This document shows, piece by piece, positions 481 through 52,185 of a stretch of DNA of 64,000 nucleotides. The notes beneath the pieces were generated by a model. The model did not search any database, was not told where the DNA came from, and saw only the letters and a list, made by a program, of their open reading frames with translations. The number at the start of each line of letters is the position of its first letter. The stretch's first letter is position 1. The stretch comes from Candidatus Rokuibacteriota bacterium (GTDB lineage: Bacteria > Methylomirabilota > Methylomirabilia > Rokubacteriales > CSP1-6). The translations under genes were made by a program, and so were the position numbers. Location: assembly GCA_023249095.1 (NCBI GenBank), contig JAHFDK010000008.1:9322-73321 (forward strand). Reading direction: 5' to 3'.

Positions 481-667
481 GGTGCGAGGCCGAGCGGATT
501 GAATTCGCGAACGCTTGAACCGTCGCCGGCGGGCCGCCGCGCGTCCAGATGGAGCCCAGCCGCCGAGGAGCAGCGCACGGGTGCCGCGTGGTCCAGTCGA
601 CCCCTCGGGCACCCGCCCGCCGCCCGGCGATCGCCAGAATGATTCGACCGATGCACGGTTAGCCGCG

Positions 668-2643: not shown

Positions 2644-4056
2644 ATGGCCTCGCCGGTCCGCGTACGATTCGCGCCGAGCCCGACCGGCCACCTCCACGTC
2701 GGCGGCGCGCGCACCGCGCTCTTCAACTGGCTGTTTGCCCGCCACCACCGCGGCGCCTTTGTCCTCCGCATCGAGGACACGGACCGCTCGCGCTCGACCG
2801 ACGAGAACATCGTCGCGATCGTCGACGCACTCCAGTGGCTCGGTCTCGACTGGGACGAGGGGCCGCCGACGCCGGGCTATCGTCAGACCGAGCGGTTCGC
2901 GATCTACCGCGAGCACGCCCAGCGGCTCCTCGCCTCCGGACGGGCCTACTACTGCGACTGCCCGCCCGAGCTTCTCGATCGCGAGCGGGGGGTCGCCCAG
3001 CAGCGGGGCGAGACGTTCCGGTATTCCGGACGCTGTCGCGACCGGGGCCTCGGTGCCGGCGCGCTACGCCTCCGGATTCCCACCGCGGGCGCCACGGTGG
3101 TGAACGATCTCATCCACGGGCCGGTCACGTTCGAGCACAGCCAGCTCGACGACTGGATCCTTGTCCGCACGGACGGAACGCCCACGTACAACTTCTGCGT
3201 CGTCGTCGACGACGTCACGATGAGCATCACCCACGTCATTCGCGGCGACGACCATCTGTCGAACACTCCCAAGCAGATCCTCTGTTACGAAGCGCTCGAC
3301 TACGCCGTCCCCGAGTTCGCCCACGTGTCGCTGATCCTGGGCAAGGATCGAAGCCGCCTCTCGAAGCGTCACGGCGCCACGTCCGTCCAGGCCTTCCGCG
3401 ATTCGGGCATCCCCGCCGACGCGCTGGTGAACTACCTGGCGCGGCTCGGCTGGTCGCACGGCGACCAGGAGGTGTTCTCCCGCGCCGAGCTCGTCGAGCT
3501 CTTCGACATCAAGAACGTCGCCTCGTCCGGCGCGGTCTTCGACGCGACCAAGCTCGAGTGGCTCTCGCAACTCTATCTGAAGACGATGGACGGTGCGCGG
3601 CTGGCGGAGCTGGCCGAGCCGTTCGTCAGGGCGGTTGGACTCACGCCGCCACCCGATCGCCCCCGGTTCATCGCGATGCTCGACACGCTTCGGGAGCGTG
3701 CGAAGACCCTGGTCGAGCTGGTCGAGCAGGGGCGGTTCTACTTCGAGCGCCCCGCGGCGTACGAGGCGAAAGCCGCGCAGACGCTCCTGACGGTCGAGGG
3801 CGCTCGGCGCCTCGGACTCGTGATCGCGCGGCTCGAGGGGGCGCCCGAGTTCACGGTGGCGGCGATCGAGCGCGTCTTCCGGGCGCTCACCGAGGAGCTC
3901 GGGCTCAAGCTCGTCGACCTCGCGCAGCTCGCGCGCCTCGCGGCGACCGGCCGCACGGCGTCGCCGCCCATCTTCGACGTGCTGGCCCTGGTCGGGCGCG
4001 AGGAGTCGCTGGTGCGCCTGCGCCGCGCGCGCGAGGCCGCGGAGCGGACGGCGTGA
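2644..4056 (+). CDS. gltX: Glutamate--tRNA ligase
   Basis: RFAPSPTGHLHVGGARTALFNW...LRIEDTD class-I HIGH region, colinear with GluRS along its length. Confidence 0.9.
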   Translation: MASPVRVRFAPSPTGHLHVGGARTALFNWLFARHHRGAFVLRIEDTDRSRSTDENIVAIVDALQWLGLDWDEGPPTPGYRQTERFAIYREHAQRLLASGRAYYCDCPPELLDRERGVAQQRGETFRYSGRCRDRGLGAGALRLRIPTAGATVVNDLIHGPVTFEHSQLDDWILVRTDGTPTYNFCVVVDDVTMSITHVIRGDDHLSNTPKQILCYEALDYAVPEFAHVSLILGKDRSRLSKRHGATSVQAFRDSGIPADALVNYLARLGWSHGDQEVFSRAELVELFDIKNVASSGAVFDATKLEWLSQLYLKTMDGARLAELAEPFVRAVGLTPPPDRPRFIAMLDTLRERAKTLVELVEQGRFYFERPAAYEAKAAQTLLTVEGARRLGLVIARLEGAPEFTVAAIERVFRALTEELGLKLVDLAQLARLAATGRTASPPIFDVLALVGREESLVRLRRAREAAERTA

Positions 4057-4840
4057 GGCTCCTGCTCGCGCGCCACGGGCAGTCGGTGTGGAACCAGGTG
4101 CGGAAGTTCCAGGGCACCAACGACGTCGGCCTCTCCGACCTCGGGCGCGCGCAGGCCGAGGCGCTCGGGCGTGCCCTCCGCGGCGGCTATCGCGTCGCGG
4201 CCGCGTACGTGAGCCCGATGCGCCGGGCCATGGACACGGCGGAGATCGCGCTGGCCGGGACCGGGATCCCGCTGGTGCCCATCCCCGAGCTGCGCGAGCT
4301 GTCACTCGGCGAATGGGAGGGCTGCACGGTCGACGAGATCCGAGCGCGCGAGGGCAATCCGTACCTCGCATGGGTCCGGTCACCGCTGGATTGCCCGCCG
4401 CCCGGCGGCGAGCCGCTGCCGGACGTCTGCGCCCGCGTTCTGCACGCGATCGGACGGATCGGCGCGGACCATCGAAACGGGGATGATGTCCTCGTCGTCG
4501 CGCATGGCGGGGTGATCAGCGTGTATCTCTGCCACTTGCTCGGCGTCTCGTTCAACGCGCTCTGGCGAATGCGGATCGACAACGCCTCGCTGACGATCGC
4601 CCGGCCGCCGCGCCTGGTGTCGGTCAACGACACGACGCACTTACCGCCTACGCCTCGCACCATGTGGTTTGACGTCTCGGGGGCCGGGGGCGGCCCGGGG
4701 GGTGCGTCCCCCTCGACCCGTGTCGTCAGGACTGACCCGATCACCGCGCGTCCGACACAGACGCCGCCGGTTGCAGCTGGCGTGGTCGAGGGGGACGCAC
4801 CCCCCGGGCCGCCCCCGGCCCCCGAGACGGAGAGAGTTCC

Positions 4841-4844
<4 letters not shown>
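4053..4844 (+). CDS. Histidine phosphatase family protein (phosphoglycerate-mutase-like), with a C-terminal extension read through a foldback element
   Basis: GTG start at 4053 overlaps the gltX stop (GTGA). It carries the RHG catalytic motif (LLLARHGQSVWN) and the downstream H of the family. The conserved domain ends near 4650, but the frame stays open through the palindromic element to TGA at 4842-4844. Confidence 0.65.
4674..4828. repeat. Foldback element copy A: perfect 45-bp inverted arms (4674-4718 / 4784-4828) around a 65-nt core
   Basis: Right arm is the exact reverse complement of the left arm (gtctcgggggccgggggcggcccggggggtgcgtccccctcgacc). The core's reverse complement has termini resembling those of copies B and C. 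Confidence 0.8.
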
Positions 4845-6788
<1,944 letters not shown>

Positions 6789-6994
6789 ACGCTGACACCG
6801 TCCGGCTCCTGACCGCCAGCGATCGCGGCGCGGCGGCCCGGCTCCGGCGGACGCTGCGGCAGCTCGGGTTCGCGGATCCGGGCGGGGCGGCGGCCAACCT
6901 CGAGAGCCTCACGCCGACGCCGCGCGACGCCGAGCTCCTGGCGCCGGCTTTTCCACGCCTCCTGGCCGAGCTCGCGGGGGCGCCGGACCCCGAC

Positions 6995-45249: not shown

Positions 45250-46266
45250 GTGCTCCTGCTGGCCCTCCTGGCGACCGGCTGCGCCGGCGTCGGAGCTCCC
45301 GTGGCTGGTGCCCCGGCCCATCACCGCGAGCGCGGGTACGCGAACCTGAATCCGTCGCATGTGACCGCCGGCGCCTGGACACGTTTCACGTTCTTCGTCT
45401 CACGCATCTGGGCCAGCACCTTCACGCCGCGGACCGCGAACTTTCCCCAGGTGGCGAGCGACCTCGGGACGATCCATGACAGTCGCGGCGCCGTGACCGT
45501 GACCTGGGTCGGTCATGCGACCCTGTTGATCCAGCTGGACGGCGTCAACATTCTCACCGACCCTCACTGGTCGGCCCGAGCGAGCCTGGTGTCGTTCGCG
45601 GGACCGCGGCGAGTGTCGGCCCCCGGTCTCAAGTTCGAAGATCTACCGCCGATCCACGCGGTCGTGATCTCGCATGACCACTACGATCACCTGGACGAGG
45701 CGACGGTCAGACGGCTCGCCGCGGAGCACCGGCCCCGGTTCTTCGTCCCGCTCGGGCTCAAACAGTGGTTCGCAGACGTCGGCATCACCGATGTCGACGA
45801 GCTCGACTGGTGGGGCAAGCGCGAATTGCGTGGGCTGACGTTCACCTGTGTCCCGGCCCAGCACTTCTCGGGGCGCACTCTCTGGGATCGGAACCGCCGC
45901 CTCTGGAGCGGCTGGGTCGTCGCCGGCCGAGCCAAGCGTCTCTACTTCGCAGGGGACACGGCCTACTTCGACGGGTTCAAGGAGATCGGAGCCCGGCTCG
46001 GCCCGTTCGACCTCGCAGCGGTGCCGATCGGCGCCTACGTGCCCGCGGTCATCATGAAGGCCAGCCACACGACGCCGGAGGAGGCGCTCCGGGCCTTGGC
46101 CGACGTCCGTGGGCAGCGATTGGTTCCGATCCACTGGGGCACGTTCGATCTCGCCGAGGAACCGCTCGACGAGCCTCCGCAGCGGCTCGTCGCCGAAGCT
46201 CGCCGTTTGCGCCTCGACCTCGATCGGATCTGGGTTCTCAAGCACGGCGAAACACGTCGCTGGTGA
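45250..46266 (+). CDS. MBL-fold metallo-hydrolase lipoprotein
   Basis: Lipobox (LLALLATGC) then a beta-lactamase-fold Zn hydrolase (HDHYDHLD, ...HWGTFDL). Start is GTG 45250 or CTG 45229. Confidence 0.65.
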   Translation: MLLLALLATGCAGVGAPVAGAPAHHRERGYANLNPSHVTAGAWTRFTFFVSRIWASTFTPRTANFPQVASDLGTIHDSRGAVTVTWVGHATLLIQLDGVNILTDPHWSARASLVSFAGPRRVSAPGLKFEDLPPIHAVVISHDHYDHLDEATVRRLAAEHRPRFFVPLGLKQWFADVGITDVDELDWWGKRELRGLTFTCVPAQHFSGRTLWDRNRRLWSGWVVAGRAKRLYFAGDTAYFDGFKEIGARLGPFDLAAVPIGAYVPAVIMKASHTTPEEALRALADVRGQRLVPIHWGTFDLAEEPLDEPPQRLVAEARRLRLDLDRIWVLKHGETRRW

Positions 46267-46267
46267 C

Positions 46268-46414
46268 GGGATGGGGTCGGCGAGGGCGGGCGGGGTCCCT
46301 GGCTCGACCCGACTGCTGCGATGCGCTGCGACGAAATTCTTCAGCCTGAGGCGATGCAGCGCTGACTACACGGGTCGAGCCAGGGACCCCGCCCGGCCCT
46401 CGCCGACCCCATCC
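46268..46414. repeat. Foldback element copy B: 43-bp inverted arms (46268-46311 / 46371-46414, one 1-nt indel) around a 59-nt core
   Basis: Arms gggatggggtcggcgagggcgggcggggtccctggctcgacccg and its reverse complement. Core begins ACTGCTGCGAT and ends CGCTGACTACA, matching copy C. Confidence 0.85.
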
Positions 46415-46489
46415 TGTTTACCGCCTGGGTCCCTGATATGGGCCTGGCTGAGCGCAACCCGACCCGGCTGACGAGGCGCGTCTCTAGCG

Positions 46490-51763: not shown

Positions 51764-52030
51764 ATGGCAGCCCAGCGCGGCATCGGGCTGATCCTCCTGG
51801 TCGTCATCGCCGGCTTGGTCGTGGGCTCCCTTCTCGGCGAGATTCTCGGCAGCCTTCTCCCGGCCGGCCGCGCCCAGGACTTGATCACGCGCGGGCCGAC
51901 GATCGGCCTCGCGCCGCCCGCGACACTGGATCTGCGATTCCTGGCCATGACCTTCGGCCTGAGCCTCAAGGTCAATCTGGTCGGCGTCGTGGGGATCGTC
52001 CTCGCCGCGGTCACTCTTCGCCGTCTCTAG
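51764..52030 (+). CDS. DUF4321-like small membrane protein
   Basis: 88 aa with two TM segments, GSLLGEILGSLLP and a conserved LDLRFLAMTFGLSLKVNL pattern, as recalled for DUF4321. Confidence 0.5.
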   Translation: MAAQRGIGLILLVVIAGLVVGSLLGEILGSLLPAGRAQDLITRGPTIGLAPPATLDLRFLAMTFGLSLKVNLVGVVGIVLAAVTLRRL

Positions 52031-52183
52031 GCGGCTCGCCGGGGGGAGGGCGTGAGGGGACCGGCCGGTATCCGACTGCTGCGATCCGGGACTTGAAGAT
52101 CATGTGCGCAGCGCGAGGTCAACGCTGACTACACGGATCCCGGCCGGTCCCCTCACGCCCTCCCCCCGGCGACCCGACTAGAG
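52025..52183. repeat. Foldback element copy C: 38-bp near-perfect inverted arms (52037-52074 / 52134-52171, one mismatch; imperfect extension to about 50 bp) around a 59-nt core
   Basis: Arms cgccggggggagggcgtgaggggaccggccggtatccg and its reverse complement. Core begins ACTGCTGCGAT and ends CGCTGACTACA. The extended arms reach the upstream TAG stop and the maf ATG. Confidence 0.85.
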
Positions 52184-52185
52184 CC

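Follow-up and report, generated by a model that had tools for sequence, protein, structure and literature searches.

A palindrome within the phosphatase reading frame

How a long and perfect palindrome comes to lie inside a protein-coding gene, and whether that gene still ends where it once did, are the questions raised by a histidine-phosphatase gene (His_Phos_1, PhoE/GpmB-like; 263 codons) of Candidatus Rokuibacteriota. It occupies positions 4053–4844, forward strand, of the analysed stretch of 64,000 nucleotides, referred to below as the window. The gene is assigned from its open reading frame and from orthologues that carry PF00300 within the same gene limits; an exact-protein look-up found the 263-residue product not to be on record. 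Its GTG start at 4053 overlaps the gltX stop codon, and the conserved domain ends at about 4643 (...NDTTHL). The remaining nucleotides, 4644–4841, encode a tail that is read through the palindrome, as proposed in a preliminary description of the locus; the tail measures 66 residues rather than roughly 65 and is rich in Gly, Ala and Pro rather than Gly and Pro (example peptide, VVRTDPITARPTQTPPVAAGVVEGDAPPGPPPAPETER). The earlier statement that the frame stays open through the whole element is correct. It closes at a TGA (4842–4844) overlapping the GTG at 4841 of an nptA-like gene for a Na/Pi cotransporter with a PhoU domain (4841–6448, forward strand; PF02690 and PF01895). The junction, a GGAGAG ribosome-binding sequence followed by the GTGA stop/start overlap (4829–4844, forward strand), is present in alleles with or without the element. 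A second reading frame is likewise open through the element. Openness alone therefore proves nothing, and the evidence on the frame is the pattern of allele lengths discussed below.

The repeat finder returned two 46-nt arms, 4673–4718 and 4784–4829, that are 100% complementary and 65 nt apart, and the whole hairpin-forming repeat comprises 157 bases. The palindrome had previously been delimited as a perfect 45-bp repeat (4674–4718 and 4784–4828); the perfection holds, and the additional pair C4673–G4829 extends the length to 46 nt. Because the right arm thus reaches 4829, 11 nt (GAGAGAGTTCC) rather than 12 separate it from the GTG. The left arm is G-rich and encodes (D)VSGAGGGPGGASPST. The right arm, its perfect complement, is C-rich and encodes VEGDAPPGPPPAPET; neither arm is assigned a strand. 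The asymmetric 65-nt core between them (4719–4783) has its canonical orientation, ACGCYAGC...CTGACTACACG, along the minus strand. Reverse-complemented, the window core begins and ends as first described, ACGCCAGCTGC...CTGACGACACG, and its conservation among orthologues is limited to the termini. No comparable inverted repeat arose in 100 shuffles. The RNA fold of 4660–4850 has an energy of -154.7 kcal/mol against -98.9 +/- 4.6 for shuffled sequences (z = -12.2), and cores folded alone give z-scores near 0 on both strands.

Two families of palindromic repeats

Copies of such palindromes are present at four sites in the 64-kb window (527–625, 4673–4829, 46266–46417 and 52023–52185) and at a further locus in contig L004. 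Two of them, both on the forward strand, belong to type F1a. The copy at 46266–46417 lies between convergent genes, its first base doubling as the last of the TGA that closes an MBL-fold gene, and has a 59-nt core (46312–46370) with the ends ACTGCTGCGAT...CTGACTACAC. The space between a DUF4321 membrane-protein gene and maf is filled by the copy at 52023–52185 (core 52075–52133), which begins at the TAG of the former and stops 2 nt short of the ATG of the latter. The two copies have the same core ends and different arms. The copy at 527–625, also on the forward strand, belongs to a second family, F2. Flanked by the UDP-glucose/GDP-mannose dehydrogenase and UbiA genes, it retains about 67 nt of the 3' part of the core together with the right arm; the same site in L018 (4842–4998) carries F2 at full length, including the left arm and the core start that the window copy lacks.

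The preliminary description regarded the phosphatase element as a divergent copy in inverted orientation. A 14-mer comparison of this core with the family ends leaves three mismatches, a level common by chance and weak alone. The window junction CTCGACCCGTGTCGTCAG, by comparison, matches the reverse complement of the right junction at 46 kb (CTGACTACACGGGTCGAG) at 17/18 positions, and L018, a 96%-identical orthologue, carries the exact family terminus CTGACTACACG. These two observations establish that 4673–4829 is a family member inside the phosphatase frame, with its core on the minus strand. The word divergent is also fair: the element belongs to a subfamily (F1b; 65-nt core, 5' end ACGCYAGC) seen only at the phosphatase locus, and has two substitutions in otherwise conserved termini.

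Across F1, the cores (59–65 nt) share the termini ACTGCTGC or ACGCTAGC ... CTGACTACAC and are flanked by arms of about 46 nt. F2 has a 92-nt core, AGGGACCCGTTCCC...GCCGCGTGGTCGTC, with inner arms GGGCGGGAGGGGTCGA. In all copies the arms are 45–57 nt long and 94–100% complementary. The outer arms differ between loci, and what the copies have in common is the inner 8–16 nt of the arms and the core termini. Every copy is placed precisely at the 3' end of a gene or at the junction of two, and the neighbours are housekeeping genes.

A search of genome contigs with both family termini gave two true matches, both in Rokuibacteriota metagenome-assembled genomes, and five chance matches; scans of viral contigs for the F1 and F2 motifs returned nothing or chance matches only. 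A targeted full-text literature search found nothing on Rokubacteria repeats, and F1 and F2 are apparently undescribed palindromic repeat families. The flanks of four copies show no visible direct repeat. Alleles without the palindrome, for which the preliminary description had proposed to look in related genomes, do exist (L012, L047, L064 and L067), but none is a clean empty site: 'empty' alleles are ambiguous or deletion products, L012 and L015 looking like deletions. With neither a target-site duplication nor a clean empty site found, mobility of the repeats is indicated only by their dispersed copies.

Some compositional features recur. Whichever strand of any copy is read, its 5' arm is rich in G and its 3' arm in C (for example window 4673–4718, 46266–46311 and 52023–52074, and L004:209–262), and the 5' arms contain several runs of at least three G that resemble G-quadruplex motifs, such as GGGCGGGCGGAGGGCGGGCGGG in L004. 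A palindromic TCGA marks the inner arm ends of F1b, of the 46-kb type and of F2, and GGATCC those of the 52-kb type.

Age and turnover at the phosphatase junction

The distribution of alleles was viewed on a neighbour-joining tree, a quick distance tree of the 591-nt phosphatase domain. F1b copies span this tree from the window clade out to L062. Judging from this distribution, the insertion at the phosphatase locus is old and common to a deep clade. Interspersed among the F1b carriers are lineages in other states. Central deletions leaving a 19–32-bp hairpin are seen in L015, L019, L033 and L042 and a one-sided deletion in L001, and almost nothing of the element is left in L012, L048 and L067. 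In a paraphyletic group close to the window clade the site is occupied by F2, nested within the outer ~20 nt of older arms (GTGTCGGNGGCCGGGGG...CCCCCGGCCNCCGACAC). The DUF4321–maf junction behaves similarly: from the upstream TAG onward it holds F1a in the window, L005 and L099 lineages and F2 in L103–L108 (about 6832–6992). F1 and F2 thus alternate at two independent sites.

The arms cannot simply be palindromes that existed at the target beforehand, as their inner 35–45 nt are homologous among the copies of a family. The outer ~20 nt of the arms at the phosphatase locus do appear to be a pre-existing palindrome.

The one-sided deletion derivatives (L001:43–107, L102:1189–1266, L015:6508–6616 and window 527–625) have all lost the upstream arm and kept the arm nearest the downstream gene together with the last core bases; four of four is statistically weak.

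Coupled changes in the arms

The arms of orthologous copies change together. In an alignment (A3) of 15 distinct orthologous F1b copies, the 49 arm pairs are 97.9% Watson-Crick paired, and in 31 of them both partners have changed (90 cells). Such pairing and covariation were reached in none of 500 shuffles, and sliding the partner by 1–3 columns lowers the pairing to 44–55%. A one-base indel is mirrored as well, a change from G6 to G5 being accompanied by one from C6 to C5 when the L005 copy is compared with that of the window. Pairwise identity is 0.75–0.77 in the arms and 0.66 in the core middle, close to the 0.71 of third codon positions in the adjacent domain; these parts of the element therefore drift at about the neutral rate.

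Massive covariation combined with extreme hairpin stability invites the explanation that the hairpin is a host cis-acting RNA element kept for regulation of the downstream gene, whether as a processing site for RNase III or another enzyme, as an mRNA stabiliser or as a modulator of phosphatase–nptA coupling. The exact placement of every copy at a gene 3' end or junction and the in situ conservation of the core termini would suit such a role. However, nearly all of the pairing is of the Watson-Crick kind, and G-U accounts for about 1%. G-U pairs fill only 3 of 659 paired arm cells, and among 35 distinct F1 and F2 copies the 61 mismatches in 1512 arm positions comprise 16 of G-T type on the sense strand, 13 of A-C type and 32 others; an excess of G-U on the transcribed strand, sought as a sign of selection on RNA, is absent (16 versus 13). 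RNAalifold found no covarying pair inside a core among 15 F1 and 14 F2 cores. Rfam searches at gathering score matched neither the window nor L018; when three elements were scanned under relaxed settings, the only matches were generic miRNA-precursor hairpins below threshold. A promoter/terminator scan returned nothing; specifically, no terminator-like site was detected in 4400–5100, and the sequence 3' of the arm, GAGAGAGTTCCGTGA, contains no T-run. Rare G-U pairs, a mirrored indel and the lack of core covariation, of an Rfam match and of a T-run together fit arm-to-arm copying better than selection on an RNA helix. Further against a regulatory RNA, the element is retained at four loci where its core has turned round with respect to the direction of transcription, and many lineages have a shortened element, none, or one with an unrelated core. 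A host RNA element is thus unlikely.

We infer instead that the arms are kept complementary at the DNA level, by template switching or gene conversion. Template switching between the arms of an inverted repeat is reported to homogenise the arms, to invert the spacer and to be able to extend the arms (PMC8604942, PMC8794818, PMC13100816).

Several other classes of element were considered and set aside. The defining motifs of hammerhead and other small ribozymes, integron attC sites, retron ncRNAs, dif/Xer sites and rolling-circle origins are not visible, as judged from the sequence and general knowledge. A new structured RNA was likewise rejected, the covariation being confined to the long arms, with 3 G-U in 659 cells and no covarying pair inside the F1 and F2 cores.

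Core termini and core inversion

Among the F1b copies, the first 8 nt and the last 12 nt of the core have identities of 0.97 and 0.93, the level of first and second codon positions. The core lies in the opposite orientation in 2 of the 15 copies, where the terminal bases encode different residues, which suggests that the constraint on the termini acts on nucleotides and not on the peptide. The termini may be recognition sites for a trans-acting factor, or may be refreshed by conversion from other copies. Their conservation implies some function or ongoing homogenisation, and speaks against a purely neutral fossil.

Inversion of the core is seen at the phosphatase locus and at three other loci. 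At the phosphatase locus the core is flipped relative to the window in L011 and L058 and in proteins P0031, P0034, P0037 and P0051, with the tail reading ...TTLATARGVSFPGAGVGSTLTTRV... instead of ...STRVVSVDPT...ASVV. The F2 core is inverted in L014, L029 and L030 and in L013:982, and the F1a core in L103, L105 and L106 relative to L104. Orientation follows the neighbour-joining tree, L011 and L058 grouping with the short-tailed L049, L054 and L055 and the inverted F2 copies forming one clade. Inversions therefore appear to be rare and stable events rather than rapid phase variation.

One pair in opposite orientation, L103 and L104, is 99.4% identical over 14.5 kb. Around the element between the MBL-fold and methyltransferase genes (L103:1833–1995, L104:1872–2026), all differences but one within 1.5 kb fall in 1837–2030. 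In that interval the two cores have opposite orientations and are further set apart by about 11 substitutions and one indel, while the inner arms show 6–7 compensated differences. This pattern points to more than a flip: a central replacement by conversion or import, or localised mutagenesis.

The near confinement of these strain differences to the element, the in situ conservation of the core termini, the alternation of F1 and F2 at two sites and the nesting of F2 in older outer arms would also fit a more dynamic explanation. F1 and F2 might be cassettes, each made of inner arms and a core with asymmetric termini, that are moved or exchanged into the centres of existing palindromes, either by an enzyme recognising the core termini on an extruded hairpin or by break-induced gene conversion at cruciforms. 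One junction could then be re-occupied, flipped and recoded repeatedly while its outer arms and the frame persist. Two families at the same two sites would be unexpected for random insertion and hint at targeting or a site-specific role. We give cassette exchange a low probability; if true, the elements would be mobile, would home to palindromes and would rewrite the C-termini of proteins reversibly.

The inversions could alternatively reflect a programmed switch, in which a recombinase flips the core and so recodes about 22 tail residues or alters downstream expression. Intragenic invertons of this type are known in gut bacteria (10.1101/2023.03.11.532203). Both orientations do occur at four loci, even between strains as close as L103 and L104, the reading frame is open in either one, and the inner arm ends are flanked by conserved non-identical sequences, as would be expected of recombinase sites. 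But a segment of 59–65 bp is very short for the synapsis of duplex sites, frames open in both orientations are expected by chance at ~68% GC (our estimate, 0.3–0.4), orientation tracks the phylogeny, and the L103/L104 difference, with its substitutions and altered inner arms, is no clean flip. A programmed switch is accordingly improbable.

Reading frame and ancestral stop codon

The end of the phosphatase gene was compared among 120 orthologous proteins and about 90 orthologous Rokubacteria loci. The tails that follow ...NDTAHLPP..WFDVS range from about 15 to 85 residues, and with few exceptions they terminate in ...TERAP/ERVP* at one and the same GTGA junction; the conserved nptA motif begins 14 nt past the phosphatase stop in almost all orthologues examined. 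Distant orthologues ending ...GGERAP* also have short tails, the nptA anchor motif being located in few of them. The element sits in frame between the conserved WFDVS and the terminal TERVP*, and relative to the shortest allele the window allele has a net gain of 153 nt (51 codons).

The preliminary description held that the element had removed or replaced the original gene end. If so, the long tail would be an accidental read-through to the next available stop, and the distance of some 190 nt between the end of the domain and the stop, with the extra residues encoded by the palindrome, is compatible with such a history. Yet alleles with no element or only a remnant terminate at the same TGA overlapping the nptA start, as in L012 ('WVDESRAP*', TGGGTCGACGAGTCGAGGGCACCGTGA), L047, L064 and L067, and the residues flanking the element, WFDVS before it and TERAP/ERVP after it, are common to alleles with and without it. 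As judged from these alleles, the TGA at 4842–4844 is the ancestral stop and the element was inserted upstream of it; loss of the original stop is contradicted by this comparison and very improbable. The long tail is itself shared by some orthologues: the 263-residue form extends down to about 73% overall identity, which indicates an old insertion, whereas many other orthologues are short-tailed.

Frame maintenance was measured by the distance that separates the W codon and the nptA motif, a length independent of gene calls. The distance takes 19 distinct values from 41 to 251 nt, 16 of which are congruent modulo 3. Two of the out-of-phase lengths (L060 and L063) have extra bases after the stop only, and in the third (L024) a true frameshift joins the phosphatase frame to nptA; the frame is thus kept in 16 of 17 informative length classes. 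By our own estimate, at least 15 independent indels would fall in frame by chance with a probability of (1/3)^15, or ~7e-8. The reading frame through the tail therefore appears to be under selection. From this conservation of frame we infer that the tail is translated and that nptA initiation is coupled to its termination or at least not overrun.

A few alleles at this locus and its surroundings stand apart. The junction is broken in the rare alleles L024:10594–10660, by the fusion frameshift, and L027, by an apparent deletion from the F2 core into the first nptA codons; these may be real variants or assembly errors. From L025:4153 onward the phosphatase tail enters low-GC sequence unlike the rest of the locus (...IPPSTLMKTSKPFSDERPPK...), which may be an insertion or a chimeric contig. 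Upstream of gltX in L018 (5945–8590), a DUF362 gene holds an intein with a LAGLIDADG endonuclease (881 versus 358 residues). The window is without this intein, about 1.6 kb being missing between positions 2008 and 2034 relative to L018.

Misassembly, which the preliminary description had raised for the palindrome and which could be suspected of the apparent inversions too, given that one end of contig L001 lies 42 nt upstream of the hairpin and that a copy in L101 contains Ns, is of negligible probability: the same architecture, with lineage-specific compensated differences, recurs in dozens of independent NCBI, JGI and ENA assemblies from different pipelines, each orientation is found in several of them, and the 45–52-nt arms are shorter than the k-mers of k141 (MEGAHIT-style) contigs.

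Proposed origin of the element

The phosphatase palindrome is probably an old copy of a dispersed, non-coding foldback repeat of Candidatus Rokuibacteriota, of MITE- or RPE-like type (RPE, Rickettsia palindromic element), tolerated in frame within an unconstrained phosphatase tail upstream of the ancestral TGA. Under this proposal the arms would be homogenised, and the core occasionally flipped, by template switching or gene conversion between the two arms of one palindrome. The tail, palindrome included, would be translated. Selection would keep the frame to make ribosomes stop at the UGA of GUGA and to leave nptA initiation undisturbed, and the element itself would be selfish or neutral at this site. 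A purely neutral fossil leaves two observations unexplained, namely the in situ conservation of the core termini and the alternation of F1 and F2 at two sites.

The repeats thus appear to add undescribed palindromic families to a large uncultured soil phylum. They offer a natural example of a hairpin of about 50 bp kept perfect across deep divergence by coupled arm changes, for which DNA-level copying is a better fit than selection at the RNA level; covariation by itself is no proof of a functional RNA. Such an element can persist for long within a coding tail where selection presumably acts on the frame and not on the peptide. Annotation of GC-rich genomes calls for caution, as a C-terminal extension rich in Gly, Ala and Pro can be a translated repeat.

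Comparison with known systems

By description, the Rokubacteria element resembles MITEs, Correia elements, ERIC/IRU, REP/REPIN sequences and BIMEs: it is about 150–210 bp long, non-coding, present in multiple copies, able to form a hairpin and found between genes or at their ends, and related families coexist. Typical MITEs have conserved terminal inverted repeats and a target duplication. Like them, the element has terminal inverted repeats and multiple dispersed copies, but its outer arms are locus-specific, and what the copies share is limited to the inner ends of the arms and the core termini. REPs are shorter, with an imperfect palindrome of about 20–35 nt, a conserved GTAG/CTAC foot, hundreds of copies and a RAYT transposase. 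The arms described here, in contrast, are 45–57 nt long and not conserved in sequence, and the CTAC within CTGACTACAC lies on the loop side of the stem. The hairpin is also distinct from an intrinsic terminator, a GC-rich hairpin followed by a T-run, in that no T-run follows it.

The position of F2 in the centre of an older palindrome remnant, as if such centres were preferred targets, is reminiscent of IS1397, ISKpn1 and the IS110/IS1111 family. These are full insertion sequences with a transposase that insert into palindromic units, whereas the F2 unit is a non-coding palindrome of 160–200 bp. Intragenic invertons share with the phosphatase element a segment between inverted repeats inside an open reading frame, whose two orientations encode different peptides (10.1101/2023.03.11.532203). 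They differ in that their switching is enzyme-mediated and occurs within populations, while the Rokubacteria core orientation, as seen in consensus assemblies, is stable within clades.

Template switching at quasipalindromes, as presented in published accounts (PMC8604942, PMC8794818, PMC13100816), would explain the coupled arm changes, the inversion of the spacer and the growth of the arms outward. The examples in these papers have arms of ~5–20 bp and spacers of a few bases, compared with arms of 45–57 bp and spacers of 59–93 nt here.

For a palindrome within coding sequence, the closest parallel is provided by the Rickettsia palindromic elements, 85 of 728 of which lie within open reading frames (PMC1166351). 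RPEs belong to an unrelated phylum with AT-rich genomes. The Rokubacteria element forms a terminal tail rather than lying within the fold, and its arms are much longer, nearly perfect and not conserved between copies. Both are nonetheless short dispersed palindromic repeats that also occur inside protein-coding genes and are read through, and at the phosphatase locus the palindrome lies in the open reading frame with the frame maintained in 16 of the 17 informative length classes, as in an RPE-like insertion.
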